Origin: Alkanindiges illinoisensis DSM 15370
GTDB taxonomy: Bacteria; Pseudomonadota; Gammaproteobacteria; Pseudomonadales; Moraxellaceae
Length of the DNA: 32,000 bases
Assembly: GCF_000619845.1 (NCBI RefSeq)
Contig: NZ_JHUX01000003.1
Span: forward strand, 1,090,064 to 1,122,063
Reading direction: 5' to 3'
The notes under the pieces were generated by a model. It was given only the letters and a program-made list of their open reading frames with translations. It had not been told where the DNA came from and searched no databases. A program made the position numbers and the translations under genes. How positions within the stretch are numbered: the first letter of the stretch is position 1; each line of letters opens with the position of its first letter. Below, in pieces: positions 5,779-27,156 of the stretch.

Positions 5779-6024
5779 CACAGTAACAGCAGCAGGCAAG
5801 TTTTAAAGGCGCATATTGTAATGGAAAATTGCCTGCCTGAAAATGTTGGTAACGGATAAAACAGCAAGAAGTTTTTCCAGTATTAAAATTTTATAAAGGT
5901 TTAGACTGATAAGGTTGGTAATCAGGATTTGGTTCATCACTAAAAAACTGGCAAGCTTTAAGATTGTTATAAAATTAGAAAATAAATAATAAAGTAAATT
6001 CTAGTTAGGCATAAAATTAGATAA

Positions 6025-6070
6025 AACAATAAATACCTGATGCTACCGTGTTTATCAGGTATTTATTGTT
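6025..6070 (-). terminator. 17-bp perfect hairpin, candidate terminator of the 52-aa ORF
   Basis: Arms aacaataaatacctgat / atcaggtatttattgtt with a 12-nt loop. On the minus strand it is followed by TTTTATC. It lies about 70 nt downstream of the 6140..6298 ORF. Confidence 0.5.
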
Positions 6071-6139
6071 GATAAAGCATTAGTAGCATGAATTTCCAAC
6101 CTAAAACCAGCTCTTAACAACTCAGCACCTTTAAACGGC

Positions 6140-6298
6140 TTAGGAAGCTGAACCGCTGTGCTCGTCACTGTGTTTTAGTTCATCATGCGTGTATGTCGCG
6201 GTAAATCCTTCTACCAAATCAATTGCTGAAGCCAGTAACGTAATAAAAGTACGGGTAACCAGCTGTCCTGACTTTGGCTGGATAGTCACCTTAATCAT
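6140..6298 (-). CDS. small hypothetical protein (52 aa), not in the ORF track
   Basis: Hand-translated as MIKVTIQPKSGQLVTRTFITLLASAIDLVEGFTATYTHDELKHSDEHSGSAS. A GGAG sits 7 nt upstream of the ATG, and the hairpin at 6025-6070 follows it. Confidence 0.4.
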   Translation of the reverse strand: MIKVTIQPKSGQLVTRTFITLLASAIDLVEGFTATYTHDELKHSDEHSGSAS

Positions 6299-6611
6299 AA
6301 GATTTCTCCAATTTATTTTCAGGTTTAATTCACAATAACGACTTGGTACTGCATCATCTAGGCTAAAGACACCATCATGATGCGTGTTACAACAACTTTA
6401 ATATATAAAGTCAGCTTGTAATCATCTACGGGAAACTACCCTGCTTTTTGTGTAAAATCAGAGTAAATGTATAAGCAAACCAGCAGTTTATAAAAGCTAA
6501 CGCAGGCTTTGGTCATCTTGTGTTAATAAATCAGAAGCTGGTTACATAACTGATGAGCAGACTTTTTAAATTTTTTATTGTTAGTCTTGAATTAATGTCT
6601 GAAATTTTTTA

Positions 6612-13734: not shown

Positions 13735-13810
13735 TCTCCAATAGCTCAGTCGGTAGAGCAACGGACTGTTAATCCGTGTGTCCCTGGTTCGAGCCCAGGT
13801 TGGAGAGCCA
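13735..13810 (+). tRNA. tRNA-Asn (GTT)
   Basis: The cloverleaf folds by hand: acceptor tctccaa/ttggaga, anticodon loop ctGTTaa, T-loop ttcgagc, encoded CCA. Confidence 0.95.
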
Positions 13811-13825
13811 AGATTCTGCGGTAAT

Positions 13826-13858
13826 AAAAAATCCCTGCCTAATAAGCAGGGATTTTTT
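13826..13858 (+). terminator. rho-independent terminator after tRNA-Asn copy 1
   Basis: Stem aaaaatccctgc/gcagggattttt followed by a T-run. Confidence 0.75.
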
Positions 13859-13972
13859 ATTGAAAATTGAAAGATAAGTAATTTTTGAATAAAACCATTA
13901 TGTTGAGTCAGGCAGCTAAGATATTTATGCCTACGTATTCTATTTCACATTTTTTATAAGTATCAAAGATAT

Positions 13973-14455
13973 ATGAGTAATTCAGAAAGAAATCTGGAAG
14001 GAATTAGAGGCTGGTTAGTATTAATATTTATAGGCTTAGTTATCACACCAATTCGTATTGGTCTGTTTCTTTTTCAAGAATATACAGCACTATTTAAACA
14101 TGGTAACTGGAATGTACTTACATCTCCATCAAGTGAATTCTACCATCATTTATGGGCACCATTATTAGTGTTTGAAAGCGTTGGCAATTTATTGCTACTT
14201 ATATTGTCTTTAACCGTATTATATTTCTTTTTACACAAATCAAAATATGTACCAAAACTTATAATTTTCTGGCTAACGTATGGCCTTATTTTTGTCATTA
14301 TAGATTTTTTCTTCGCCGAACAAATTCCACTAATAGCGGATCTTTCTCAAGATACCGAATCCACTAAAGAAGTTATAAGATCATTCATTGCTGCGCTTAT
14401 TTGGATACCTTACTTCCTTATATCAAAAAGGGTTAAGGCCACTTTTATTCATTAA
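13973..14455 (+). CDS. polytopic membrane protein, DUF2569 (YdgK)-like
   Basis: 160-aa ORF in visibly AT-rich DNA between the two tRNA-Asn copies. It has an N-terminal GIRGWLVLIFIGL segment and about 4 TM helices. The family assignment is from memory of the motif and has not been searched. Confidence 0.6.
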   Translation: MSNSERNLEGIRGWLVLIFIGLVITPIRIGLFLFQEYTALFKHGNWNVLTSPSSEFYHHLWAPLLVFESVGNLLLLILSLTVLYFFLHKSKYVPKLIIFWLTYGLIFVIIDFFFAEQIPLIADLSQDTESTKEVIRSFIAALIWIPYFLISKRVKATFIH

Positions 14456-14622
14456 CTTTACTACAATTATGAGAACTCATTACTTCACTTAATTGAAGCA
14501 TGACTCAGCAAGAAATACTAAGGCAATGTACACTCTATATCTGTCATAAACTCTTAATAAACTTCTTCTGCCTACAAAATCAGCAAAGAAACCTGATTTT
14601 ATTAATATTTTCGCAAAACCCC

Positions 14623-14651
14623 TTGACCCTATGGGGATTGATGCATAAAAT
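14623..14651 (+). promoter_or_regulatory. sigma70-like promoter of tRNA-Asn copy 2
   Basis: TTGACC-N17-TAAAAT, 17 nt upstream of the tRNA. Confidence 0.55.
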
Positions 14652-14668
14652 GCCGCCGTACTGATCGA

Positions 14669-14744
14669 TCTCCAATAGCTCAGTCGGTAGAGCAACGGAC
14701 TGTTAATCCGTGTGTCCCTGGTTCGAGCCCAGGTTGGAGAGCCA
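14669..14744 (+). tRNA. tRNA-Asn (GTT), second identical copy
   Basis: 76 nt identical to 13735..13810, at an offset of 934 bp. Confidence 0.95.
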
Positions 14745-14759
14745 AGATTCTGCGGTAAT

Positions 14760-14793
14760 AAAAAATCCCTGCCCAATAAGCAGGGATTTTTTT
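14760..14793 (+). terminator. rho-independent terminator after tRNA-Asn copy 2
   Basis: Same hairpin as 13826-13858, with one loop substitution and one extra T. Confidence 0.75.
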
Positions 14794-14852: not shown

Positions 14853-15302
14853 ATGAGCATGTGGCTGATTATTGGTATTGTAATCATTGCATTACTGGGC
14901 ATTATTGCAGGGGAAAATAAAAAGCCCCGCCAGCAGCACACACCCATTCATGCCAAACCAATATTAACCCGTCGTGAACAGCAGTTTTTTGCCGTACTGC
15001 AACAAGCCATGCCCCGCGCTTATATTTTCCCGCAAGTCAGCTTTTCCGCCATTTTGACTACTAAGGGGTTTTATACGCGTAGTCAGTTTAACCGCAAGAT
15101 TGCTGACTTTGTGTTATGCGATCACAATCTTAATATTGTGGCGATTATTGAACTGGATGACAGTAGTCATAAAGGCCGCGAGCAACAGGATGCCGCGCGT
15201 GATGCCATGCTGAATGAAGCAGGCTATCCGGTATTTCGCTATGCACAAATTCCTGTGGCTGGGCAGCTCCAGAAAGACCTGCAAAAATACCTGAAGTGGT
15301 AA
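14853..15302 (+). CDS. membrane-anchored DUF2726 / PD-(D/E)xK nuclease-like protein (copy A)
   Basis: 149 aa from the ATG at 14853; the track start at 14712 lies inside the tRNA. An N-terminal TM helix is followed by a K/R-rich stretch and then ADFVL...IIELDDSSHKG. It is about 50% identical by eye to the prophage protein at 26278..26739. Confidence 0.8.
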   Translation: MSMWLIIGIVIIALLGIIAGENKKPRQQHTPIHAKPILTRREQQFFAVLQQAMPRAYIFPQVSFSAILTTKGFYTRSQFNRKIADFVLCDHNLNIVAIIELDDSSHKGREQQDAARDAMLNEAGYPVFRYAQIPVAGQLQKDLQKYLKW

Positions 15303-15317
15303 TGGCTTAATATCGTA

Positions 15318-15339
15318 TCTGGAAAAGTCCAGAATTTTT
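15318..15339. terminator. short bidirectional hairpin between convergent genes
   Basis: tctgga-aaag-tccaga followed by ATTTTT. Confidence 0.45.
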
Positions 15340-15346
15340 AATCCAT

Positions 15347-15715
15347 TTAGTTGTGTTTTCTATCAAAGGCCTTATGCTGGTTTGCGCTGGCATCGCGCAC
15401 ATTACTGGCACAAGTACTGGCGCTGACCTCCACTGGCTTGGCTCTTGCATCATAACATTTACAGCCTGTGGGCGTTTTCATGCAGCCTGCAATATACTGC
15501 ATTTGTGAGCTGGAATTTAAATGATGCAGTTGTGACTTGATCTGTTCATTTTGAATCTGGGTTTCACTCATGCCATCGCTATGCGGCGTCGGAATTGAAT
15601 CTGAAGAAATCTGGCTCGGCTCGGTTTTAAAGAAAGACTGCTTTTTAAGGACATTAAACACAACAAGTGCAATGACCAGAAAAATAGCCAGCTTAATCAT
15701 TTTTTGTAAGGCCAT
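15347..15715 (-). CDS. orphan Zot/pI C-terminal-domain (pXI-like) protein
   Basis: TM helix (KLAIFLVIALVVF) plus YIAGCMKTPTGCKCYDARAKPVEVSASTC, which aligns without gaps to the C-terminus of the prophage Zot (YLSGCIQLKTKCSCYTQQGSKLDVSIADC), all 4 Cys included. The start is uncertain (ATG at 15715 or 15700, TTG at 15736) and there is no clear SD. Confidence 0.6.
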   Translation of the reverse strand: MALQKMIKLAIFLVIALVVFNVLKKQSFFKTEPSQISSDSIPTPHSDGMSETQIQNEQIKSQLHHLNSSSQMQYIAGCMKTPTGCKCYDARAKPVEVSASTCASNVRDASANQHKAFDRKHN

Positions 15716-15932
15716 AATTGTCTTTATAATTAGCAAAATTATGTGAGTAGCGGCAAATTTCTATTATTGTATTAATATCAGCATGCACACTGTGAAAACT
15801 GATTTTAATAAATCTATGCCTTAAAAGACAAGCTGTAACAGAGTTGCTTATAATTTAAGCAGCATCATTGATGTTTACCGCTGCATACTCCAGCTTATTC
15901 AATTCAACAATAATATACAGCTGGAGTATGTC

Positions 15933-18305: not shown

Positions 18306-18764
18306 TTGTTTAATGGCTTTGCCAGAGAAATAAATGAGTCAATTAATTTTTTTAATTATAGGGTTGGATATTGGTTAGGGAAAAATTATAAATCAACCAG
18401 ACAAAATAAAAAGCCGGTGCCATCACGGCTTAGGCAATTGACAGCCATAGAACGGCAAAAAGCTAAAGTTCTGTATACAACTGATGCAGATCGCATTAAG
18501 GAGCTCAATTTACTTTCACCCACTGAAGGAAAGTTTTTACGCATACTTCAGCATGAATTCATCAGTGCTGACATTGTAGTCAAGCAAAAGCGTTTCTTTG
18601 TGGTAGATAAAGATCAATTTCCACTGGCTATCTTTGAATATCGTGATGGGTTGCAAACTTTAAGGGCAACAGATGTAGATGATGGTTTACCTGTATTTAT
18701 CTATAAGAATTTGCCACCAAGCAGCTCTATTAAAGAAGATGCAGAATTTATACTGGCTCGATAA
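18306..18764 (+). CDS. hypothetical protein with degenerate DUF2726-like segments
   Basis: AT-rich region with a TTG start and no internal Met. LSPTEGKFLRILQHEF, FFVVDKDQFPLAIFEYRDG and GLPVFIYKN mirror the LT..E..F..L, DFV..ELD and AGYPV.RY blocks of the two DUF2726 proteins, but the acidic and Lys residues are not conserved. Confidence 0.45.
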   Translation: MFNGFAREINESINFFNYRVGYWLGKNYKSTRQNKKPVPSRLRQLTAIERQKAKVLYTTDADRIKELNLLSPTEGKFLRILQHEFISADIVVKQKRFFVVDKDQFPLAIFEYRDGLQTLRATDVDDGLPVFIYKNLPPSSSIKEDAEFILAR

Positions 18765-19171: not shown

Positions 19172-19301
19172 GATATTTTTCTAGTAATCTTGTATGGGTA
19201 CAAGAAAGTAAGATTAAGCCGTTAATTTTGCACAGAAAACTAGCAATTTGAATGATCTAGAAAAAGAGGTTGTCAAAGCTAAGCCCAAAATTAGTTTTAA
19301 G

Positions 19302-19386
19302 TGAAATTGCTGGATTAAATCCGTTTGATACGCGCACAGAGGTACAGACGGAATTAGACAAGGATAATTCTTCTTATTGGAATAAA
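19302..19386 (+). pseudogene. remnant of the 3' end of a phage HTH-regulator gene (older, related phage)
   Basis: Encodes [29 protein letters not shown], colinear with the tail of the intact prophage HTH gene (26995-27079). Of the 11 differing codons, 6 are synonymous and 5 change the residue. Confidence 0.6.
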
Positions 19387-19431
19387 TGGCGCGCCCGGCG
19401 GGATTCGAACCCACGACCCCTGCCTTCGGAG
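19366..19431. repeat. attL: 66-bp perfect direct repeat (21 bp of flank plus the 3' 45 nt of tRNA-Arg)
   Basis: Identical to 27059-27124 at an offset of 7,693 bp. It contains only the 3' part of the tRNA (CCA end to anticodon loop). Confidence 0.85.
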
Positions 19432-19465
19432 CGCGTCAGTTTTAGTATTTCAGTTACAAAAATAT

Positions 19466-20347
19466 TTAAAAAGTTGGCAGAGATTTTAGAGCGTCGCGCA
19501 AATTATCAATTTGCAAGTGAGCATAGCGCTCCGTTGTTGTTATACACGTATGGCCTAGCAGATCGCGCACCGTATAAAGCGGGATTCCCGATTGAACGAG
19601 CCACGATGCAAAAGTGTGTCGTAAATCGTGAATACGCAAGTTATCAATCTTTGCCATCTTACAGGCTAATCTAAATCCTTTCTTTAAACTCAGTATATGA
19701 GTGCCTGTCTGTTCATTATAAAAAACCCAAGTATTATTCGCCCTGGCTAACTTCATTTCATGCAGCACTTGCATGGCCGTTTCATTCAATGCAATAAAAC
19801 GCCGCCGTTTTGACTTGGTATTTTCCCTATTCAGAATTAAATAGCGATTATTAAAATCCACCCTATCCCAAGAAAGCCGGAGCAGCTCACCAGATCGGCA
19901 GCCCGTATTTAAAGCCAATTTGATAAAGCAGTTTAAAAAGTAATTATCTTTTGAAGCATAGATTAGCCTTGCAGCTTCAGCATTAGATAGAAAGCGGATA
20001 CGTGGCTCAGATTCAGATAATGAAAAATTGGCCAATGGGTTTCTATGGGATAATTCATGGTCAGTAAAATAATAATTAATTGCAGCACGCAGAGACCGAA
20101 ATTCACGGTTAATTGTCGCGTCAGTCACTCCAGCAGCACGCCTAAAGTGAATGTAGTCACGCAGGCTTTGCCGTGTGATTGCAGTTATTTCAATGTCACC
20201 ATAAAAAAGCTCAAAGCGTGCATAGGCATATTTGTCACGATCTTTTGAAGTATGTTCAGAATAATGCAGATAATAAGCTGTCACATTATTAAGGGTAATC
20301 ATAGCTAAAAGTCCTGATACATAAGGACTTTTAAAAGTGGAATTCAT
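19466..20347 (-). CDS. int: tyrosine recombinase / phage integrase
   Basis: C-terminal catalytic region NTGCRSGELLRL...HDLRHTFASWLVQSG...LLGHTCITTTERYAHL (R, H-x-x-R, Y). It lies directly next to attL. Confidence 0.9.
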   Translation of the reverse strand: MNSTFKSPYVSGLLAMITLNNVTAYYLHYSEHTSKDRDKYAYARFELFYGDIEITAITRQSLRDYIHFRRAAGVTDATINREFRSLRAAINYYFTDHELSHRNPLANFSLSESEPRIRFLSNAEAARLIYASKDNYFLNCFIKLALNTGCRSGELLRLSWDRVDFNNRYLILNRENTKSKRRRFIALNETAMQVLHEMKLARANNTWVFYNEQTGTHILSLKKGFRLACKMAKIDNLRIHDLRHTFASWLVQSGIPLYTVRDLLGHTCITTTERYAHLQIDNLRDALKSLPTF

Positions 20348-20366
20348 GGCATGTTTAGTCTGTTTT

Positions 20367-20512
20367 GAAACGCGGTGCGTTTCGCTTCGCTTGTAACTAT
20401 GAAGCTGATGCGCACAAGTCGCATCAGCTTCTGTAATTAGCTTGTTTTTGGGTTCTTTGGGCGATCAAGTTACTTTCAGACTAGACGGTGCAGTTGCCCG
20501 CTATTCTGAAAG
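20367..20512 (-). promoter_or_regulatory. cluster of three hairpins in the phage non-coding region (candidate packaging signal / origin / terminator)
   Basis: gaaacgc-ggt-gcgtttc (20367-20383); a perfect 12-bp stem gaagctgatgcg/cgcatcagcttc (20401-20431); ctttcaga/tctgaaag (20473-20512). Confidence 0.4.
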
Positions 20513-20523
20513 CCTTGACGCTG

Positions 20524-20649
20524 CTAATCCCTACTATTTTCTTTGACACCTTTAATAATTCTACGAATAGGGTGTTTAATACCGTCCCATATAAAACCAA
20601 ATAAGCATAGACCTATAAGAAACATCAGTGCTTGATAATAACTAGACAT
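20524..20649 (-). CDS. small hydrophobic phage protein (41 aa), not in the ORF track
   Basis: Its ATG at 20649 overlaps the zot stop (ATGTCTAG). The product is MSSYYQALMFLIGLCLFGFIWDGIKHPIRRIIKGVKENSRD: one TM helix plus a basic tail. Confidence 0.5.
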   Translation of the reverse strand: MSSYYQALMFLIGLCLFGFIWDGIKHPIRRIIKGVKENSRD

Positions 20650-21934
20650 TAGGTGTTACCTGTGCTGGTGACTGCACTGGAGCAGCAGGCTGTGACTGTG
20701 CAAGGAACGGGTTAAACGGCATTCCGTCATTGATTACTTTTTTGCAGTCCGCTATAGACACGTCCAGCTTAGATCCTTGTTGCGTGTAACAACTGCATTT
20801 TGTCTTGAGCTGGATGCAACCGGACAGATAAGGCCGGTTAACTCCACCAGCAGAATACTGGTTATCAAAAGGCTTGTTTGGGTCATAATTCACTTCCACA
20901 GTAGGCGTGGAAGTTTGATTTTGCAGTGTGGAAGTCTGTCGCGCTTCCAGATCTGCACGTTGCTCAGGGGTCAGCGGGTCATGCACTTGTGCTGCCTGCT
21001 GTGCTTGTACTGTCTGGCTAGTTTTTGCTGGTTGAGGTTTGCCCCCAGCGACCTCAGTTAAAAAGTTATCTGTCAGGAACAGGGTTTTTAGAGCGTAGGT
21101 AAACGCTAGAACTACACCAATACAGATAAAAATAAACTTGGGTGGGATACGCATTTTATGCGTGTGTACCGTAGCAGACTTATAATATTTATATAAATCC
21201 TTTGGATAGCTAAAGCGAAATGAGCGTTCAGCAATGGCTTTTTTTGTTGGCTCATTAGGCCCAAGAACACAGTAAGCCCAGAGATATACAGTAGCCGATG
21301 GCATCCCCCAGCCACGGTGCAGGTGGAAGTGATTACCCACTACTGAACGGAAGTGAGAATGCACCAGAACCGGAAACTGGGTGATCCCATAAATATCAAA
21401 ACCGCGGTGACGGTGAATCTGTAAGGCTTCTACAATGTCATTGGTTTTGCGTTCTTCCTTGTAGGTTTCACGCTGCTGGATTTCATCATAGAACACGCGT
21501 GAGCCGTCAGGACAAGTACGCCAGTCATCAGGACTAGGCAAAACATTAGGGACTTTCAGGCCGTTGATGTCAGCGTATATGGTGCGGACATCCTTTAAAA
21601 ACTTAAGTTTTAAAGCAGGGTTATAGTCCTTAATACGGGTAATAATTGAGTTGTAAGCCATTGTTTTCTGGTAGTAGAGCTCATGGCGTAATTCAAGGGA
21701 AAGTATAGAAAAATGATCATATTCATCTGGGTATAACTCTATTTGCTCTTTTAAATTCCAGCCATACTGGAATTCATCTTCAAGCTTGTTTTCCCTAATG
21801 ATTTTATCGTTATGGGCAAAAATAGCAGGGTTCAGCTTAATGTTCTTGGCGTTCTCTTTTTCAAACTGGATGATTAAAGAAACCGCGTAAAGGGTTTTTC
21901 CTGAGCCGGGCGTTCCGGTTATCAAATGCAGCAT
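20642..21934 (-). CDS. zot: Zot / pI-like filamentous-phage assembly ATPase
   Basis: N-terminal Walker A GTPGSGKT, a central TM helix (FIFICIGVVLAF), and a Cys-containing periplasmic C-terminal domain. Its position after the pVI-like gene matches Ff and CTXphi. Confidence 0.92.
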   Translation of the reverse strand: MLHLITGTPGSGKTLYAVSLIIQFEKENAKNIKLNPAIFAHNDKIIRENKLEDEFQYGWNLKEQIELYPDEYDHFSILSLELRHELYYQKTMAYNSIITRIKDYNPALKLKFLKDVRTIYADINGLKVPNVLPSPDDWRTCPDGSRVFYDEIQQRETYKEERKTNDIVEALQIHRHRGFDIYGITQFPVLVHSHFRSVVGNHFHLHRGWGMPSATVYLWAYCVLGPNEPTKKAIAERSFRFSYPKDLYKYYKSATVHTHKMRIPPKFIFICIGVVLAFTYALKTLFLTDNFLTEVAGGKPQPAKTSQTVQAQQAAQVHDPLTPEQRADLEARQTSTLQNQTSTPTVEVNYDPNKPFDNQYSAGGVNRPYLSGCIQLKTKCSCYTQQGSKLDVSIADCKKVINDGMPFNPFLAQSQPAAPVQSPAQVTPNV

Positions 21935-22011
21935 GGGTTACTCCGAAGCTACCCTGCGGGCGGGTCACCGTGCGCTCCGTGCAGTTGCGCGGTGCGCCGT
22001 GCAATCCGTCC
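21935..22011 (-). other. GC-rich 77-bp spacer with three GCACGG repeats
   Basis: On the minus strand it reads ggacggattGCACGGcgcaccgcgcaactGCACGGagcGCACGGtgacccgcccgcagggtagcttcggagtaaccc, immediately before the zot ATG. Its composition is unlike the flanking phage DNA. Confidence 0.5.
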
Positions 22012-22299
22012 TCAGGTAGCTTTTCGCAATGTTAGCTTTGATGCGTTTAACGCCATTCGGGTCAAATACGCAGATAAAATAAGCGACATATAGAGATCAA
22101 GGCCAAGCAAGTGTGCAAAGGCCAATACGTCACTTGGTACACCACCTAGCATCGACTTCATTTTGTCAACGGCAGCCGTGAAGGTGGTCATGAATATGGC
22201 TGATGAGGTAAGCATGACACCCGCACCAGTTAGGACATTTTTTAAGAATCCCTTTTGACTGGATTCAACAACAGCAGTTACTTTTGACCAGAAACCCAT
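22012..22299 (-). CDS. pVI / Ace-like minor coat protein
   Basis: 95-aa hydrophobic protein. Its ATG at 22299 overlaps the upstream stop (TAATG). It lies between the pIII-like gene and zot. The track start at 22395 is upstream and overlaps the pIII-like gene. Confidence 0.6.
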   Translation of the reverse strand: MGFWSKVTAVVESSQKGFLKNVLTGAGVMLTSSAIFMTTFTAAVDKMKSMLGGVPSDVLAFAHLLGLDLYMSLILSAYLTRMALNASKLTLRKAT

Positions 22300-23714
22300 T
22301 AACTTTCTTCCTCTGTACGTCCAGCTACGATCATAGAAGCCTGATAAGCACCAATGAGTAAAATTGCTGGTTTTGCATAAGCAAAAGCCTGACACCAGCC
22401 GGAAAGATCAAACTCAAAGGTCTGGGTTTGACCTATAAAATTAAAGCTGAAGGTTTTTGGCTGGGGACATGTTCCGCCAAAATCCAACTGGATGGCTTGA
22501 GGTGTTTCTGTCGTAGGAATATCAATATCAGTATCACTATCATCACGCTCAGGAACTTCTTCCTTGATTGCATCAGCAAGCTCGCGTGTGGCCGTTGCTG
22601 TTTTCGTTGTTTCAGCAAGCTGTTTTTCTGCATCAGTATGGGCTTGAGTAGTTCCAGCAGTTACAGCCTTTTTGGTTTCCTCTGTCTGTGTTGCAGTGGT
22701 TTGAGTCGCTGTTTTCACTGATTCTGTGTCAGTTGCTATACGGGTAGAGTTAGTAGCAACTTTTCCTGAATTGGTATTACTAATATTCATTGCGTCACAA
22801 ATGAAAGCAGCCCATGAGCAAAAGCCGGGCAATGTGAATTTTTCTATAGGCGGTGCATCTGGATCAGCAGTATTAGGCTTTGTTTCTTTGGTGATATCGT
22901 TGTCACCTTCTTTAGGCTCTACACCAGCATTTGCATCTAGCTGTTGAGGTACAGAGGGATATGCAAGAGGTTTACCTTGTTCAGCGTCAGCTAGATCAGC
23001 CGCAACTGTTTCTTTTACAAAGTCATTTGCAGCAGCGTCACCAGCAGCGGCATTTTTTGCTATTTCAGCGCCAACAACATCGTACGGTAAGTATTTTTCT
23101 TCAGGTTTAATGTCGGGGTCATAATTTGGGTTTACGACACGGTTAGCTTGGTCGTATCCCCAAGCACTACGGCATTCAACGGTTTGACCATTATCTGTTG
23201 CAACCATTTCGGTGATAGGAGGATGTCCTTCAACAGCAGCAACAGCAGCATTACACGCTTCCCCAAATGTAGAATAAGTCTTTGTTGTGCCAGCAATAGA
23301 AATCTGCCATAAATATTGAGAATTATTAACAGGTGTTTCCCAATATTTAACACGATTATTTGCAGGATCAAGTACCCAAGAAACACCATCGAGAAGTAAA
23401 TCAATTGCAGTCGTTACAGCTAGTACAGCACCGAAACGACCTATGCCACGCGCCAGATCAGCAGGTGCTGGAGTAACTTTTGCAAATGAATTAACCGTAC
23501 GAGAAGCACCATTAATGATTGCTTCTTTGGTTGCATTGATTGTTGCTACACCAGCCTCAGCAGCTATAGAACCTACAGACCAGCCACCCAAACCAGAAGC
23601 AGCATTTGCAAATACATAAGCTGGAGCAAACATCATGTAAACACAGATGATTAGATTAATTATCTTCGTGTGATAATCAGGAATGCTAGAACGGTTACAA
23701 TTAAAGGTATCCAA
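22299..23714 (-). CDS. pIII-like adsorption / minor coat protein
   Basis: 471 aa with a signal peptide (...MMFAPAYVFANA), a Thr/Ala/Gln-rich linker, and a C-terminal membrane anchor (AILLIGAYQASMIVAGRTEEES). It lies after the coat gene. The start (TTG at 23714) is uncertain. Confidence 0.65.
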   Translation of the reverse strand: MDTFNCNRSSIPDYHTKIINLIICVYMMFAPAYVFANAASGLGGWSVGSIAAEAGVATINATKEAIINGASRTVNSFAKVTPAPADLARGIGRFGAVLAVTTAIDLLLDGVSWVLDPANNRVKYWETPVNNSQYLWQISIAGTTKTYSTFGEACNAAVAAVEGHPPITEMVATDNGQTVECRSAWGYDQANRVVNPNYDPDIKPEEKYLPYDVVGAEIAKNAAAGDAAANDFVKETVAADLADAEQGKPLAYPSVPQQLDANAGVEPKEGDNDITKETKPNTADPDAPPIEKFTLPGFCSWAAFICDAMNISNTNSGKVATNSTRIATDTESVKTATQTTATQTEETKKAVTAGTTQAHTDAEKQLAETTKTATATRELADAIKEEVPERDDSDTDIDIPTTETPQAIQLDFGGTCPQPKTFSFNFIGQTQTFEFDLSGWCQAFAYAKPAILLIGAYQASMIVAGRTEEES

Positions 23715-23740
23715 TTTATCCAGCTCGCTTCGTCAGTCAT
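23660..23740 (-). CDS. possible 26-aa coat-like peptide (pVII/pIX-style), not in the ORF track
   Basis: MTDEASWINWIPLIVTVLAFLIITRR has an acidic N-terminus, a hydrophobic core and a basic C-terminus. It overlaps the pIII-like 5' end in another frame. The SD is weak. Confidence 0.3.
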   Translation of the reverse strand: MTDEASWINWIPLIVTVLAFLIITRR

Positions 23741-23754
23741 TTAGTTAATCCCAA

Positions 23755-23783
23755 TAGAAGAAAGCCCCGAAGGGCTTTCGTTT
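23755..23783 (-). terminator. hairpin terminator immediately after the major coat gene
   Basis: gaaagccc-cgaa-gggctttc, 5 nt after the coat stop, followed on the minus strand by a T-rich tract. Ff phages have a terminator after gene VIII. Confidence 0.6.
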
Positions 23784-24032
23784 TTACTTGGCACCCTTTT
23801 TGAACCATGACCATGCGAGGTACATGCCCAGTAAACCAACCAGAACAATAATGACTCCCTTAACAGCAGTTTTAGTGCCGTCAAGCTCACCAGTTGCCCC
23901 AGAGAAGTCCAGTTCAGCAGCAGCAAAAGAATTAGCTGCTACAAGCGCAGTTGAAGCCCCTACAGCACCTACGAATGCTGCATCCTTAAGACGTTTAACC
24001 AGTGGTTGGGTTTGTGGAGTTACATCTTTCAT
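23784..24032 (-). CDS. major coat protein (pVIII-like)
   Basis: The leader ends ...AANSFA|AAELDF. The mature peptide of about 45 aa has an acidic N-terminus, a hydrophobic core (VIIVLVGLLGMYLAW) and a basic C-terminus (FKKGAK). AAGGA is upstream. Confidence 0.85.
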   Translation of the reverse strand: MKDVTPQTQPLVKRLKDAAFVGAVGASTALVAANSFAAAELDFSGATGELDGTKTAVKGVIIVLVGLLGMYLAWSWFKKGAK

Positions 24033-24054
24033 TTTTTACATCCTTAAGTTGTGT

Positions 24055-24252
24055 TCAGGTGTTTTTATCCATGAACTGTTTAAAAAGCTGGTAGCAGTAA
24101 GCCATTATTAAAATCGTGCAGATTTCAACAGTAAGCTCACGTGCTTGAGCTTTCGTGATTGCGACCTGGTCAAGTACAGTGACTTGCTCAGACCATGAAA
24201 CACACGTCTGTGGCGTTGTGTCAGATAGCTGGTCACAGACGTAGTGCGTCAT
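24055..24252 (-). CDS. small phage protein (65 aa)
   Basis: Tightly packed: it starts 3 nt after the previous stop. It has one hydrophobic segment (ICTILIMAYCYQLF). Function unknown. Confidence 0.5.
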   Translation of the reverse strand: MTHYVCDQLSDTTPQTCVSWSEQVTVLDQVAITKAQARELTVEICTILIMAYCYQLFKQFMDKNT

Positions 24253-24255
24253 TCT

Positions 24256-24396
24256 TTAAAATCCGGTGCAGGTCATGTAATGGGCAGTAATCAGGCTTTT
24301 AGACATGACTTGACCGCAGCAAATACATTTAACTTTTGGTACGAGTGATATGCTCATTGGCTTAAATCCCAGTCCTTTTACATAAACCTGAATCAT
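24256..24396 (-). CDS. small Cys-rich phage protein (46 aa), not in the ORF track
   Basis: Its ATG is 2 nt after the stop of the ssDNA-binding-like gene. The product is MIQVYVKGLGFKPMSISLVPKVKCICCGQVMSKSLITAHYMTCTGF, with a C-x-CC...H...C pattern. Confidence 0.5.
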   Translation of the reverse strand: MIQVYVKGLGFKPMSISLVPKVKCICCGQVMSKSLITAHYMTCTGF

Positions 24397-24398
24397 GG

Positions 24399-24704
24399 TT
24401 AAGCCTTAGCAGCTTGTGGCGCTAGAACAGGCTTTAGGTCAATCAAAATGGTTTTTTGGCTTTTGCCATTGGTGACCATTTCAAACGTGGCCACCGCTTC
24501 GAACGGAAACTTGAGTGTTGCCACTTTGTTGAAGTTGTCAGACAGCCCCCATGGGTATTCAGAGCCAGCGAAGCCCACAGCATCGCCTTTGCTGGTGTCC
24601 ATGCCTGTTTGCACGTAAACCTTTGTGCTGTCGTATGGCTTTCCTTCCATTTCGCCTTTGCTACGCTTCGCACCAGTTACTACTACGTTAGATTGAAATT
24701 GCAT
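24399..24704 (-). CDS. probable ssDNA-binding protein (pV/RstB position)
   Basis: 101-aa ORF directly after Rep, with GAGGT as SD. The call is by position only; I recognise no diagnostic motif. Confidence 0.5.
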   Translation of the reverse strand: MQFQSNVVVTGAKRSKGEMEGKPYDSTKVYVQTGMDTSKGDAVGFAGSEYPWGLSDNFNKVATLKFPFEAVATFEMVTNGKSQKTILIDLKPVLAPQAAKA

Positions 24705-24714
24705 GTTTTTTACC

Positions 24715-25995
24715 TCAAGAATAAACAGCGTTAAATTGGGAGCGCTGAACAGCCTGACTCAAGCGTGTATAGCCATAAGCCTGTTCAAACTGTTTGTTAC
24801 GTTCCATTGAAATTGCAAGATGATCAATAATTTGCAGACGCTTAGGTACTGCGTCAGGGTCATTAGCAGTCACAAACTGCATAATTTCTGAATCGGAATA
24901 AACCTTGCGGAAAAGGGCAAAGTATTTGCCGAATTGATGTTTGATAATTTCCTTAGCCCGCTTCTGGGTGATTTCAGCTGTTTTTTTAACAGTGGCTATT
25001 TTTTCAGGCGTGGCGTACTGGTGAAAATCCGAAAAACAAGGATAAGCACCAATAAAATATTGAGAAGGACTAAGCAAAATATCAAATGGTATAAAGCGGT
25101 CATGGCCTTTAAATTCAACCTCTGCACGTGTCCAAGGATCATCCTTAGCACCCTCTTTTTTACCTTTTTCATAAATCCGGCAATATTTTCCAGATTCACG
25201 AGTGCCAATGGTTAGCGTCCGGCCTTTGCCTGTAATGCGTTTCCAGTTGCCCAAGTGTCCAATGTTAGGCATGGTGCCACCGCACCAGAAGCCGCCTAAG
25301 CCGTCTTGCATGTTTGCCCAGTCAACATTTAAGTGTTTGCCCTGCAAATCATCATGTGCAAGGTCTACACGGGTCAGCTTGGTACGCTGGGCATATCCGG
25401 TCAGGTATTTATAAAGGCGTTCATGCCATCCTTTAGCTGCTAAAGCACAGCCTTTGCCGTTAAGCTGGACTGCAATGCGTTTAGAGCTATGACCCATTAA
25501 GACTATGCCTAGGTTGTCTTGCAGCTCCCAAGAGTACTTATAGAAGTGCATACCCTTGTCACGTTTTTTTGCGATGCCAAAACCGAAGATTTCAAACAGG
25601 TCTTGGTCTAAATCGTCGGCAATGTCGTCGTAGGCGTCAGCATCATCTAGGCCTAGTGCTAAATATTTAGGGCTAAAGGTTTCAACACCTAGCGCAAATG
25701 TTACCCAGTCCAGTTGAGCAACTTCGCCAGTACAAGGCACGCTATGGATGATTGGCAGGTCTGTACCATCTTCAGTTTTGACCATGCGGACGTTGTCCAG
25801 CTTGCGTGGATACTTCCAGTTGCCTAGGTCTGCTGTTTTCCCGAAAATTTCCGGCTGGTTGCCTTCCACTATCGCAGGGATTAAGGCCTCTTGCGTCCCC
25901 TGTGGTGATACCGTTACCCCCATATTATAAAAGGGGGTCTTTTCGACCTTTACCGTGTGTTTTAACTGGGTTTTGATTAATTTTTGATCAGACAT
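24715..25995 (-). CDS. rolling-circle replication initiator (Rep_trans / RstA-like)
   Basis: LTRVDLAHDD and GKYCRIYEKGKKEG...WTRAEVEF blocks are typical of the Rep_trans family used by CTXphi-type phages. The ATG at 25995 overlaps the upstream ORF stop (ATGTCTGA). Confidence 0.85.
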   Translation of the reverse strand: MSDQKLIKTQLKHTVKVEKTPFYNMGVTVSPQGTQEALIPAIVEGNQPEIFGKTADLGNWKYPRKLDNVRMVKTEDGTDLPIIHSVPCTGEVAQLDWVTFALGVETFSPKYLALGLDDADAYDDIADDLDQDLFEIFGFGIAKKRDKGMHFYKYSWELQDNLGIVLMGHSSKRIAVQLNGKGCALAAKGWHERLYKYLTGYAQRTKLTRVDLAHDDLQGKHLNVDWANMQDGLGGFWCGGTMPNIGHLGNWKRITGKGRTLTIGTRESGKYCRIYEKGKKEGAKDDPWTRAEVEFKGHDRFIPFDILLSPSQYFIGAYPCFSDFHQYATPEKIATVKKTAEITQKRAKEIIKHQFGKYFALFRKVYSDSEIMQFVTANDPDAVPKRLQIIDHLAISMERNKQFEQAYGYTRLSQAVQRSQFNAVYS

Positions 25996-26254
25996 GATCA
26001 TCCCCCAATTGTTCCAGAATTTCACTCAGGGAAGCATTTTCACTTTCAAAAATGTCAGCAAGTGCAGCGATGCGAGCTGGTGAGTAGCCCCAAGCCGCAC
26101 AAACTGTTTCAAGCTGGCGCAGGCAATGTTCAGTATTTGGTGTGCATGAGCCGCCTACAATGATTTCTTCGCCATAATTCGCTACTATCTGTGCGACATG
26201 ATCAAATGCAGCTTGAGCAAACTCATGCTGATCTTTATAGACAAACGTTTGCAT
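25988..26254 (-). CDS. hypothetical acidic phage protein (88-91 aa)
   Basis: Its stop overlaps the Rep start. I found no SD before either candidate start (ATG at 26254, GTG at 26263). Confidence 0.45.
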   Translation of the reverse strand: MQTFVYKDQHEFAQAAFDHVAQIVANYGEEIIVGGSCTPNTEHCLRQLETVCAAWGYSPARIAALADIFESENASLSEILEQLGDDHV

Positions 26255-26277
26255 GGCGTTCACCAGAGAGAGAAAAA

Positions 26278-26739
26278 ATGGAAATCTTGATAATCATTGC
26301 TGTTGTAGTTATTGCAGCCTTAGCTTTTTTAGGAGCAGCTAATAAAAGCAAATCTACTAAAGGTAAAAACCAAACACCCATTAAGGCTAAGCGCGTTTTA
26401 ACCATGAATGAGCAGCCAACATTCAACAGATTACGAGAAGCACTACCTGACCATATAGTTTTAGCCCAAGTTTCATTTGGTGCATTATTAAGTACAACCG
26501 GACAAGCAACACGTAATCGCTTTAATCGAAAAATTGCAGATTTTGTTGTACTGGATAAATCTTTTAACGTGGTTGCAGTTGTCGAACTGGACGACAAGAG
26601 CCACAAAGGAAAAGAACAGCAAGATGCAGAACGGGATGCAATGCTTAAGGAAGCTGGATATCGTGTCATTCGATATCCGAGAACTCCTGATCTAGATAAA
26701 GTCAAAGCTGACTTTGCACCACCCATAAACACACCTTGA
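26278..26739 (+). CDS. membrane-anchored DUF2726 / PD-(D/E)xK nuclease-like protein (copy B, prophage cargo)
   Basis: 153 aa with an N-terminal TM helix (EILIIIAVVVIAALAFLG), a Lys-rich stretch, and ADFVVLD...VVELDDKSHKG...GYRVIRY. It is on the strand opposite to the phage structural operon. Confidence 0.8.
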   Translation: MEILIIIAVVVIAALAFLGAANKSKSTKGKNQTPIKAKRVLTMNEQPTFNRLREALPDHIVLAQVSFGALLSTTGQATRNRFNRKIADFVVLDKSFNVVAVVELDDKSHKGKEQQDAERDAMLKEAGYRVIRYPRTPDLDKVKADFAPPINTP

Positions 26740-26790
26740 TATTTCGCTAAATCGGCTTAACATAATTGTGAAGTCGGATTAACTAAATCT

Positions 26791-26830
26791 AACCAAATTT
26801 GTGAAGAAAGGTTACTTCACAAATTTGGTT
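26791..26830. promoter_or_regulatory. 16-bp perfect inverted repeat, candidate operator upstream of the HTH gene
   Basis: aaccaaatttgtgaag-N8-cttcacaaatttggtt ends 18 nt before the HTH ATG. A third TTGTGAAG copy is at 26766-26773. Confidence 0.55.
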
Positions 26831-26848
26831 ATCGTCAAGGTGTGCGAA

Positions 26849-27145
26849 ATGATCAAAGAACTAATAGAAAAAGCAAAATTTAGCTTGGGAAGCTATGAAA
26901 AATTAGCAGAAGCGACAGGCGTAAGACCGTCTGTAGTATCGGAATGGAAAGCAGGAAAAAGAAAGCCTGATGCTTTTAAAATTTGTTATATGGCTGAAAT
27001 TGCTGGATTAAATCCGTTAGATACACTTGCAGAAGTACAAGCAGAAATTGATAAAGACAATTCTTCTTATTGGAATAAATGGCGCGCCCGGCGGGATTCG
27101 AACCCACGACCCCTGCCTTCGGAGGGCAGTACTCTATCCAGCTGA
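26849..27145 (+). CDS. Cro/CI-type HTH regulator whose 3' end crosses attR into the antisense of tRNA-Arg
   Basis: HTH segment [26 protein letters not shown]. The frame has no stop before the tRNA and ends at 27143-27145. The track start at 26801 lies inside the inverted repeat, so the ATG at 26849 is preferred. Confidence 0.75.
27059..27124. repeat. attR: 66-bp perfect direct repeat
   Basis: Identical to 19366-19431. Here it is part of the complete tRNA-Arg. Confidence 0.85.
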
Positions 27146-27156
27146 GCTACGGGCGC
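27080..27156 (-). tRNA. tRNA-Arg (CCG)
   Basis: The reverse complement folds by hand: acceptor gcgcccg/cgggcgc, anticodon loop ctCCGaa, T-loop ttcgaat, encoded CCA. Confidence 0.95.

Follow-up and report, generated by a model that had tools for sequence, protein, structure and literature searches.

A long-fixed Alkanindiges gene is predicted to encode a free-standing inner-membrane relative of the inovirus Zot C-terminus

We analysed a 32,000-nt stretch of the Alkanindiges illinoisensis DSM 15370 genome (contig NZ_JHUX01000003.1, positions 1,090,064 to 1,122,063; hereafter the window) around a small minus-strand gene, the orphan. With somewhat better than even confidence, we regard it as a long-fixed host gene, homologous to the C-terminus of the phage morphogenesis protein Zot, that was probably captured from an inovirus and would modulate inovirus extrusion. 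As judged from ten homologous loci, the gene has long been fixed in the chromosomes of Alkanindiges and its close relatives, where it is under purifying selection. Its product is predicted to span the inner membrane once and to carry a Zot-C-like periplasmic module as a protein of its own, and profile comparisons indicate that the link to Zot is real homology. In chronic filamentous phages the inner-membrane Zot/pI motor must dock onto an outer-membrane secretin. To our knowledge, little is understood of how secretin-less inoviruses accomplish this docking or of the means by which hosts keep them in check. A copy of the periplasmic docking module alone, kept by the host, would offer a simple genetic handle on the Zot-secretin interface.

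The first-pass annotation had placed the orphan tail-to-tail with a DUF2726 gene, next to tRNA-Asn, and our feature calls agree (Table 1). It had also read a protein of 129 aa. The corresponding ORF exists (15347-15736), but the start conserved in the family is the ATG at 15715, which shortens the product to 122 aa. Among the 19 homologues (104-142 aa), 18 start with MALQ, the other (P0019) being N-terminally truncated; no strong Shine-Dalgarno sequence was found upstream of the orphan ATG. In the protein a short N-terminus precedes a single TM helix; a variable linker and a conserved helix then lead to a small four-Cys beta-rich domain in which C78, C85, C87 and C102 are invariant across the family. 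The protein ends in an invariant tail of the family's own, N-V-R-D-[AS]-[ST]-x-N-Q-H-K-x-F. Its Cys residues and the homology to Zot suggest that the Cys domain is periplasmic, and it is presumably disulfide-bonded there.

Table 1. Features of the window, with positions counted from its first nucleotide
Feature	Position	Strand	Basis or remark
tRNA-Asn(GTT), copy 1 of tandem pair	13735..13810	+	ARAGORN
tRNA-Asn(GTT), copy 2, directly upstream of DUF2726	14669..14744	+	ARAGORN
DUF2726 gene, 149 aa	14853..15302	+	Pfam PF10881, E 5e-21
6-bp hairpin in 44-nt tail-to-tail spacer	15318..15333	.	T-run on + strand only
Orphan gene	15347..15715	-	122 aa + stop; conserved ATG at 15715
Orphan residues 53-106, N-E-Q-I-K helix and 4-Cys block	15398..15559	-	Part homologous to Zot C-terminus
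Orphan TM helix, residues 2-25	15641..15712	-	AF2 helix 2-25, pLDDT 75-86; hydrophobic block conserved
attL of 7.7-kb inovirus prophage	19302..19434	.	Partial tRNA-Arg 3' end + 85 nt like HTH gene 3' end
Zot/pI morphogenesis ATPase, 430 aa	20642..21934	-	Pfam Zot, E 2e-11; phrog_197, E 5e-67
Zot residues 369-404, Cys block matched by orphan	20723..20830	-	BLASTP
Prophage DUF2726 paralogue, 153 aa, N-terminal TM helix	26278..26739	+	Pfam DUF2726, E 4e-16, 59.3 bits
tRNA-Arg(CCG), inovirus attB	27080..27156	-	ARAGORN; repeat D1 (attR 26995-27127)

The orphan carries no ATPase domain, as had been proposed. Searches found neither a P-loop nor any Pfam, NCBIfam or PADLOC domain in it; Pfam gave no P-loop NTPase match (Walker A/B) at E <= 1, and 122 aa are too short for such a domain. 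On the Pfam searches, the protein is outside the Zot family (PF05707) in the Pfam sense. Its AF2 model is of moderate confidence, with a mean pLDDT of 65 and values of 70-80 in the Cys domain. Foldseek comparison of this model with BFVD and the PDB gave no match at E <= 1e-3 (the closest viral one is a 376-aa protein, E 0.012), and PDB sequence searches with the orphan and Zot-C profiles gave nothing meaningful. Two assignments were set aside: an NCBIfam 'listeriolysin S' match (E 0.011, 15 bits against a cut-off of 33) reflects Cys/Ser/Thr composition, and phrog_5402 'virion structural protein', matched by 13 family members (best E 1e-4), covers the TM helix only.

Pairwise BLASTP aligns the orphan with the prophage Zot over 36 positions, 11 of them identical (~31% identity, E 1e-6). 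The alignment is gap-free, as had been noted, over the block Y-x-x-G-C-x6-C-x-C-Y-x8-V-S-x3-C. Profile comparison is significant too: hhalign of the orphan family (A1) against 15 Zot C-termini (A2) yields 95.7% probability and E 8.5e-9 over 38 columns. When the orphan HMM was run on real Zots, the best scored 30.9 bits and 17 exceeded 15 bits, compared with at most 4.6 bits for reversed Zots and at most 9.8 bits for 600 shuffled ones. In short Zots these alignments are gap-free over hmm positions 33-106 (~60-70 residues), and the extended alignment pairs orphan N56 and Q62 with the Zot 'NKPF..NQ' residues. The common module spans ~40-60 residues and includes positions other than Cys, namely Y-[IL]-x-G-C-[MI], C-x-C-[YF], V-[ST] and the upstream N..Q. 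PHROG 197 'Zot-like toxin' is matched by 5 of the 19 family members (best E 3.5e-6), and tblastn over 50,697 phage records gave an inovirus Zot as the top match of the orphan, although a weak one (E 0.4). When 1.8 billion proteins were searched exhaustively with the orphan-family profile, no full-length Zot reached E <= 1e-3, the 31 bits of the best Zot corresponding to E of about 0.03 at that database size; the orphan-Zot link therefore rests on the targeted and profile-profile tests.

Using the full-length prophage Zot as query we recovered 770 homologues. Of the 120 Zots closest to it, 21 have the Cys block; in alignment A2, G112, C113, C120, C122 and C137 are invariant. The model phrog_27830 matches the Cys block of the prophage Zot (E 1e-3) but no member of the orphan family. 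After the Cys block, Zots carry an M-P-F-N-P-F motif (P146, N148 and F150 invariant in A2) that is absent from the orphan; because the two tails differ, the orphan may have a different binding partner. A TM helix, an N-x-x-I-x-x-Q helix and G-C-M-x-T-x3-C-x-C together form a signature by which free-standing or split Zot C-termini can be recognized in genomes.

Free-standing versions of the module are very rare. The exhaustive search returned only 8 small proteins (representative clusters), and the free-standing module was found in 5 of 185,579 species genomes. Two of the 8 proteins sit in inovirus contigs beside zot: P0024 (contig L023, library-wide E 1.6e-4) converges on zot and overlaps it, and P0025 (contig L024, library-wide E 7e-4) follows a short zot, of which it may be the third piece after splitting. 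Distant chromosomal homologues adjoin groEL or sit in the mutM-smpB interval; on these short contigs none of their called neighbours is a DUF2726 gene. These homologues share the N-E-Q-I-K helix and the D-S-S-G tail with the orphan. The IMG/VR viral contigs contained no close relatives of the orphan family, a viral-contig scan for DUF2726 gave no relatives, and two metagenome scans for distant chromosomal orphan homologues found nothing. Our literature search brought up no account of chromosomal, free-standing Zot-C proteins as a family.

At its locus the orphan is conserved. It is intact in all ten Alkanindiges-type loci examined, which span 33-100% aa identity, and it is adjacent to DUF2726 in each of them, including the 33%-identity relative L010. 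Wherever flanking sequence is present tRNA-Asn lies on the DUF2726 side, and in all 8 loci where it was detected tRNA-Arg lies on the orphan's side. The NG86 dN/dS, a comparison that the first-pass annotation had called for, is ~0.1-0.2 (0.10-0.18 in pairs with unsaturated dS, dS being near saturation in most pairs). Constraint differs along the gene, with a pN/pS of 0.21 in the TM helix, 0.27 in the Cys region and 0.62 in the linker. The complete genome CP171007 has no gene between tRNA-Arg and the orphan, and hence no prophage at that site. The pair had been taken for either the last remnant of an inovirus or a retained or domesticated element; the second of these options fits the ten intact loci and their dN/dS, the decaying remnant does not. 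Two outcomes that the first-pass annotation had named as refuting, disruption of the orphan in sister lineages and a lack of significance in profile searches, were thus looked for and not found.

The attL and attR that flank the resident prophage at tRNA-Arg(CCG) are the two copies of the 133-nt direct repeat D1 (19302-19434 versus 26995-27127, 89% identical). The circular map of the prophage reads DUF2726 - HTH - att - int - 41-aa ORF - zot, the order previously described. The HTH 3' end left over in attL points to earlier integrations at the same site. One of the two earlier options placed an inovirus at tRNA-Asn, but we found nothing that ties an inovirus to this tRNA; as attB of the resident inovirus, tRNA-Arg(CCG) is the likelier phage gateway. 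In prophage-free relatives it lies 50-900 nt upstream of the orphan, and in two species within ~50-100 nt. No att-like repeats of the tRNA-Arg 3' end flank the orphan/DUF2726 pair. Capture from an inovirus is, on these comparisons, the most likely origin of the orphan. What was captured would have been either a zot gene's 3' half or a phage version that already stood alone, as in the two inovirus contigs. The locus lies at the inner edge of the integration hot spot beside tRNA-Arg(CCG).

With a module of only ~40-60 residues, transfer from host to phage is also conceivable. The orphan would then be an ordinary cellular periplasmic family with a non-phage role, such as a type IV pilus/T2SS secretin accessory or an envelope protein, and the related domain of Zots would be either copied from a host secretin-binding module or shared with one. 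A fixed locus with vertical inheritance, distant homologues in the ordinary chromosomal contexts of groEL and mutM-smpB, an invariant C-terminal tail that Zot lacks and the absence of close relatives from viral contigs all agree with this explanation. Nevertheless, the module is widespread in Zots of many genera while its free-standing form is confined to 8 clusters and five species genomes, two of the free-standing versions are phage-borne, and the locus adjoins an inovirus attB. We therefore consider a cellular family unlikely, though the likeliest of the rivals. If the orphan were a cellular secretin accessory, the source of the Zot C-terminal domain would be identified.

Returning to capture from an inovirus, the periplasmic domain of the orphan would engage the partner of the Zot C-terminus, either the Zot oligomer itself or an outer-membrane secretin at its N0 face. 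Neither the prophage nor the related phage contigs contain a secretin gene; since these inoviruses encode none, they must borrow that of the host. Lacking an ATPase, the orphan would modulate inovirus extrusion, most probably by damping or blocking it, and we infer that it modulates or blocks inovirus egress. A more specific version, which is possible but distinctly doubtful, is that the orphan is a chromosomal pXI-like decoy at the secretin-docking or oligomerisation interface of Zot, limiting inovirus extrusion or superinfection by related inoviruses. If so, the host would have turned a fragment of the phage's morphogenesis module against the phage, which would be a new kind of anti-inovirus mechanism. 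Nucleotide identity of two A. illinoisensis strains is 91% within DUF2726 and steps down at the gene border to 76% within the orphan; this fast, allele-like divergence of the orphan would then reflect an arms race.

The same architecture would also suit a host-encoded, trans-acting pXI-like helper that supplies Zot with an ATPase-less partner and promotes phage assembly. The orphan matches Ff gp11 in architecture and size, and gp11 is essential in Ff (PMC5408679). Moreover, the prophage Zot seems not to make such a product itself. Its Met261 (codon 21152-21154) does lie 5 residues before the TM helix, as the first-pass annotation had observed, but its use as an internal start is not borne out: related Zots have M, L or F at this position and no Shine-Dalgarno sequence was found upstream of it. 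Against a helper role, the orphan is kept in lineages without a prophage at tRNA-Arg, and related inoviruses of other hosts do without it. Co-assembly with this Zot is also made less likely by the ~31% identity of the Cys block and by the difference in tails. We consider the helper role improbable.

The DUF2726 neighbour appears to be a PD-(D/E)XK-like protein anchored in the membrane. Its history at tRNA-Asn is separate from that of the orphan and older, and it is not demonstrably the orphan's functional partner. Its gene follows a tandem tRNA-Asn(GTT) pair whose copies belong to repeat D2 (13735-13858 versus 14669-14792, 124 nt, 99% identical, tRNA-Asn terminator included), and AGGA stands 9 nt before its ATG. 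The protein combines an N-terminal TM helix with a PD-(D/E)XK-type nuclease-like domain (PF10881, 75.1 bits against a cut-off of 24.7; DUF559, E 1e-9), and DUF2726 (PF10881) is a PD-(D/E)XK-superfamily domain (PMC3424549). Among Alkanindiges-type loci it is 68-90% identical, with a dN/dS of ~0.10. It is 50% identical to the prophage copy in the window (E 5e-45), which itself is 45-49% identical to Alkanindiges chromosomal copies and 37% to the Acinetobacter copy. DUF2726 follows tRNA-Asn in those Alkanindiges loci whose sequence reaches the tRNA, and also in one contig from Acinetobacter; there, DUF2726 converges with a 66-aa TM protein that has no detectable relation to the orphan.

It had been suggested that DUF2726 and the orphan form a two-gene module sharing a terminator hairpin. 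The hairpin is present (fold energy -11 kcal/mol), but it resembles a terminator on the + strand only and is not conserved, the gene ends of other species lying 1-10 nt apart, and the terminator scan gave 1 site where 1.4 are expected by chance. The pair could still be one functional unit, for example in phage defence or exclusion, that was inherited jointly from an ancient inovirus whose DUF2726 gene ran convergently towards the end of the assembly operon. Each gene has a paralogue in the resident prophage, the two are neighbours in 10/10 loci, the DUF2726 of the Vibrio inovirus Vaf1 converges on the end of a zot-secretin operon, and a free-standing Cys protein converges on zot in inovirus L023. 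Pairing outside these loci is a different matter, the Acinetobacter DUF2726 having an unrelated partner and the distant orphan homologues having no DUF2726 among their called neighbours on short contigs. Convergent genes are not co-transcribed. The two also evolve unequally: in L010 the orphan is 33% and DUF2726 74% identical, a divergence about 3 times faster for the orphan; the identity step described above falls at their border; and one MAG has a stop codon in DUF2726 and an intact orphan. PADLOC at E <= 0.1 matched neither the orphan, nor either DUF2726 copy, nor the 152-aa neighbour, and DUF2726 is absent from the closest related Moraxellaceae inoviruses. A single functional unit thus has little probability. 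Least probable by far is that the orphan is a decaying inovirus remnant (effectively a pseudogene) or that its Cys pattern is a chance or convergent match, for although the matched region is short and Cys-rich and no full-length Zot is significant library-wide, the gene is intact in every lineage at a fixed genus-wide locus with low dN/dS and region-specific constraint, and the hhalign result, the shared non-Cys positions, the decoy scores and the PHROG-197 matches all stand against it.

Compared with known systems, the orphan is closest to the C-termini of PHROG-197 Zot/pI proteins, a lineage found in inoviruses of Acinetobacter, Moraxella, Ralstonia, Xanthomonas, Stenotrophomonas and Pseudomonas. 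Both have G-C-x6-C-x-C-[YF]-x13-C with identical Cys spacing, a TM helix and low-complexity linker before the Cys domain, and the upstream N..Q. The orphan differs in that it lacks the P-loop ATPase, is a separate 122-aa gene, has NVRDxSxNQHKxF in place of MPFNPF, and is chromosomal, vertically inherited and host-selected. P0024 and P0025 are likewise small and combine the same Cys block with a signal peptide or TM helix, and the convergence of P0024 on zot recalls that of the orphan and DUF2726. Unlike the orphan, they are phage-borne, come from hosts of 59-64% GC and lack both the NEQIK helix and the orphan's C-terminal tail. As for DUF2726, the Vaf1 homologue converges directly on its operon end, and in contrast to inovirus-borne copies (Vaf1, this prophage) the chromosomal gene is syntenic with tRNA-Asn across genera.

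The pXI protein (gp11) of Ff phages, with which the first-pass annotation had drawn a parallel, starts at internal Met241 and lacks the ATPase, and both periplasmic Cys of gp1/gp11 are essential (PMC5408679). [quoted passage not shown] Like M13 gp11 (108 aa), the orphan (122 aa) is predicted to combine a short N-terminus in the cytoplasm with a single TM helix and a periplasmic domain of ~80-95 aa that has conserved or essential cysteines; neither protein has an ATPase. The parallel does not extend to sequence, the orphan and Zot-C HMMs scoring ~0 bits or less on M13 gp1/gp11. Furthermore, pXI arises by internal initiation within a phage gene, whereas the orphan is a chromosomal gene with its own ATG. 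By this comparison, the resemblance between the orphan and pXI is architectural only.

The orphan, a minus-strand gene whose product resembles the C-terminus of Zot without its ATPase, lies in an A. illinoisensis-type chromosome, and its protein matches an NCBI entry from A. illinoisensis at 100% identity. The start MALQK... is common to 19/19 homologues in the databases, and the real coding sequence is therefore the one of 122 aa. No domain was found in the protein with Pfam, NCBIfam or PADLOC. From its N-terminus, a hydrophobic helix is followed by a variable linker rich in Ser, Thr and Pro, a conserved N-E-Q-I-K helix and a Cys block, in which four cysteines (C78, C85, C87 and C102) are invariant in the family. 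AlphaFold2, run on the family alignment, predicts two helices, a TM one at 2-25 and another at 51-68, separated by a disordered linker, and then a small beta-rich domain (pLDDT 70-80 in this domain; mean 65).

Features of the window around the orphan gene and the resident inovirus
Feature	Position	Strand	Remark
tRNA-Asn(GTT), copy 1	13735-13810		
DUF2569 membrane-protein gene	13973-14455		
tRNA-Asn(GTT), copy 2	14669-14744		
DUF2726 gene	14853-15302	+	Pfam PF10881, E 5e-21; also matches DUF559
Orphan ORF	15347-15736	-	44-nt spacer to DUF2726
Orphan CDS	15347-15715	-	122 aa
152-aa ORF	18306-18764	+	just outside attL
ORF with HTH-like N-terminus	19270-19674		
Resident prophage Zot	20642-21934	-	430 aa
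Prophage boundary repeat	19302-19434 and 26995-27127		133 nt, 89% identical
tRNA-Arg(CCG)	27080-27156		overlapped by repeat copy 26995-27127

The resemblance to Zot, proposed from a gap-free match over the Cys block, was borne out by pairwise and by profile comparison. Orphan residues 81-116 align without gaps to residues 369-404 of the resident Zot (BLASTP, 11/36 identities, pairwise E 1e-6), and the same C-x6-C-x-C-x14-C block occurs in 21 of the 120 Zot homologues that we collected. An HMM of the orphan scored up to 30.9 bits on real Zots, 17 of which exceeded 15 bits, always at the C-terminal block, as against at most 4.6 bits for reversed and 9.8 bits for 600 shuffled Zots. For shorter Zots this alignment is gap-free over 60-70 residues and pairs the invariant N56 and Q62 of the orphan with the 'N-K-P-F..N-Q' positions. 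Furthermore, hhalign matched the orphan family to 15 Zot C-termini with 95.7% probability (E 8.5e-9, 38 columns), and 5/19 family members hit phrog_197, 'Zot-like toxin' (PHROGs, best E 3.5e-6). When 1.84 billion representatives were searched exhaustively by profile, only eight proteins came up, all of 73-141 aa; full-length Zots were not among them, a 31-bit match corresponding to an E of about 0.03 in a database of this size. Zots from inoviruses of Ralstonia, Xanthomonas, Stenotrophomonas, Pseudomonas and Acinetobacter align with the resident Zot across the Cys-block region, and the module is hence a general feature of that Zot lineage. We conclude, from sequence comparison, that the predicted periplasmic part of the orphan is homologous to the Zot C-terminal module. 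The orphan-specific tail NVRDxSxNQHKxF, which stands where Zot has MPFNPF, shows an apparent divergence in function. No description of a free-standing chromosomal Zot-C family was found in the literature that we searched.

Two of the eight proteins sit in inovirus contigs. In a high-GC one (L023, 632-2259), a 117-aa TM+Cys protein (P0024) is encoded opposite to, and converges on, a full zot with its own Cys block, the 3' ends of both genes overlapping by 7 nt. In the other (L024, 3884-5138), a 289-aa ATPase is followed on the same strand by a 38-aa TM ORF that overlaps its stop and by P0025, a 95-aa ORF that has both a signal peptide and the Cys domain. The three look like pieces of one zot, split either naturally or by an assembly frameshift.

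Among 185,579 species-representative genomes, only 5 carry the orphan: those of A. hydrocarboniclasticus, another A. illinoisensis strain and Alkanindiges sp. WGS2144, together with two MAGs whose labels go no further than Moraxellaceae and Proteobacteria. It was also found in related metagenome contigs, and IMG/VR viral contigs held no close relative. Readable loci keep a constant order, in which tRNA-Arg(CCG) is followed by 0 to 5 kb of variable cargo, the convergent orphan and DUF2726 genes, tRNA-Asn and an aminotransferase gene; in two Alkanindiges-type loci (L017 and L008) only ~50-100 nt separate the tRNA-Arg end from the orphan start. The orphan ORF is intact in 10/10 loci at 33-100% protein identity. 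Its dN/dS (Nei-Gojobori) in pairs with unsaturated dS is 0.10-0.18 (DUF2726, ~0.10), and its pN/pS is 0.21 in the TM helix, 0.62 in the linker and 0.27 in the helix plus Cys region, all approximate ratios, as dS is near saturation in most pairs. Judged by these patterns, the orphan is a chromosomal gene kept by selection and not a remnant in decay.

The first-pass annotation had left open a retained pair or the last remnant of an inovirus at tRNA-Asn; retention holds for the orphan, and the location of the phage site argues against the remnant. The 7.7-kb resident prophage carries, leftwards from the tRNA, HTH, DUF2726, Rep_trans, putative ssDNA-binding protein (assigned by size and position only), coat, pIII-like, pVI-like and zot genes, and after zot a 41-aa ORF and a tyrosine integrase gene. 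One copy of its boundary repeat overlaps tRNA-Arg(CCG), so that the inovirus attB is this tRNA, on the orphan's side of the pair, and not tRNA-Asn. The attL copy (19302-19434) runs 85 nt past the tRNA-Arg 3' end and is similar there, at 89% identity, to the phage HTH gene at its 3' end, which implies that an earlier related phage may have left its right end at the same site; the HTH-like copy forms the N-terminus of an ORF. The interval beside the orphan would thus be a repeatedly used inovirus landing site, making a phage origin of the orphan plausible. No surviving att-like repeats flank the pair. More distant full-length homologues, with the NEQIK helix, Cys block and D-S-S-G tail in common, occupy ordinary chromosomal settings (downstream of groEL; between mutM and smpB), and a cellular origin is therefore possible. 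The direction of transfer rests on a module of 40-60 residues, too short for proof. The 152-aa ORF outside attL matches phrog_23897 (unknown function, E 6e-43), with no Pfam domain and no tblastn match in 50,697 phage records, and may be cargo left by an earlier element.

No secretin gene was found in the resident prophage (19435-27080) or in three related phage contigs (L019-L021), and these phages must therefore exit via a host secretin. The orphan is a conserved single-TM protein with a Zot C-terminal module and no ATPase, beside the attB of a secretin-less inovirus. Its Cys domain would face the periplasm and could compete for, or regulate, a pI/pXI-type interface, on the host secretin or the Zot oligomer. 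We infer that restraint of inovirus extrusion is a more likely role for it than assistance, because the host keeps the gene even without a prophage at the adjacent tRNA-Arg site. On the main rival reading, the orphan would be an accessory of a cellular secretin or of the envelope and would play no part in phage biology. If true, a host pXI-like decoy against inoviruses is the more exciting, and testable, reading.

That DUF2726 and the orphan form a functional pair, as the proposed two-gene module would have it, is unproven. In its favour, the DUF2726 protein of the chromosome shares 50% identity with that of the prophage, the zot-secretin operon of the Vibrio inovirus Vaf1 ends directly against a convergent DUF2726 gene, and the orphan and DUF2726 are indeed neighbours in every Alkanindiges-type locus. 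However, their convergent orientation means that they are not an operon, and the closest related inoviruses lack DUF2726. The hairpin between them (6-bp stem, 15318-15333), taken initially for a shared terminator, has a T-run on the + strand only; one such site was found against 1.4 expected by chance and, since the two stop codons are only 1-10 nt apart in other species, it is not conserved. The pair is not obligate: in an Acinetobacter contig, tRNA-Asn is followed by DUF2726 (42-47% identity) and a convergent 66-aa TM protein that lacks a Cys domain and is not detectably similar to the orphan. This contig (CAKLQF020000018.1, 238-1018) is filed as 'Acinetobacter phage MD-2021a' and is evidently bacterial (glnA, ubiA, ubiC). 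Furthermore, the deepest syntenic relative (L010) shares 74% identity with the window's copy for DUF2726 and only 33% for the orphan. Between this strain and A. illinoisensis NFYY 23406, nucleotide identity is 92% for the aminotransferase gene and tRNA-Asn, 91% for DUF2726 and 76% for the orphan, and is lost beyond. The drop is abrupt at the orphan gene (compared over 15372-15717) and points to allele replacement or diversifying selection where the variable region begins. In MAG OH_PBrB_6 (L018), the DUF2726 gene adjacent to an intact orphan (6001-6351) has an in-frame stop (..GREQ*DAVRD..), which may mark a true pseudogene or an error of the MAG. DUF2726 is intact in the near-identical lineage L008. 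The Alkanindiges chromosomal copies are closer to the prophage DUF2726 (45-49%) than to the syntenic Acinetobacter copy (39-42%), which agrees with a transfer of the gene between phage and host, possibly into the phage, once the genera had diverged. On the evidence against pairing, we regard DUF2726 as the longer established of the two, on the flank of tRNA-Asn, and the orphan as belonging to the variable flank of tRNA-Arg, of which it is the innermost gene. The tandem tRNA-Asn copies themselves (13735-14792; a 124-nt repeat, 99% identical) flank the DUF2569 gene here and a NUDIX gene (L008) or nothing (L017) in other Alkanindiges loci, bracketing a small variable slot.

The observation on the orphan, Zot and DUF2726 is hence confirmed and its earlier interpretation partly supported. 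Homology to Zot and retention stand up; a remnant at tRNA-Asn, an obligate pair and homology to pXI do not. The gp11/pXI of Ff phages is made from an internal start, Met241, in gene I; it has the TM helix and periplasmic domain but not the ATPase, and is essential, as are its two periplasmic cysteines (PMC5408679). Through their periplasmic domains, pI and pXI meet the pIV secretin at its N0 domain, a contact needed for egress (PMC8563730). The resident Zot does have an internal Met, Met261 (codon 21152-21154), at the position matching the orphan start, as had been noted. However, close relatives have M, L or F at this position, and a Shine-Dalgarno motif is missing upstream of it, leaving a pXI-type internal start unsupported. 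M13 gp1/gp11 is detected by neither the orphan nor the Zot-C profile, so that homology is not demonstrated and the likeness to pXI is architectural: a TM helix and a periplasmic domain without an ATPase, in 122 aa for the orphan and 108 aa for M13 gp11.
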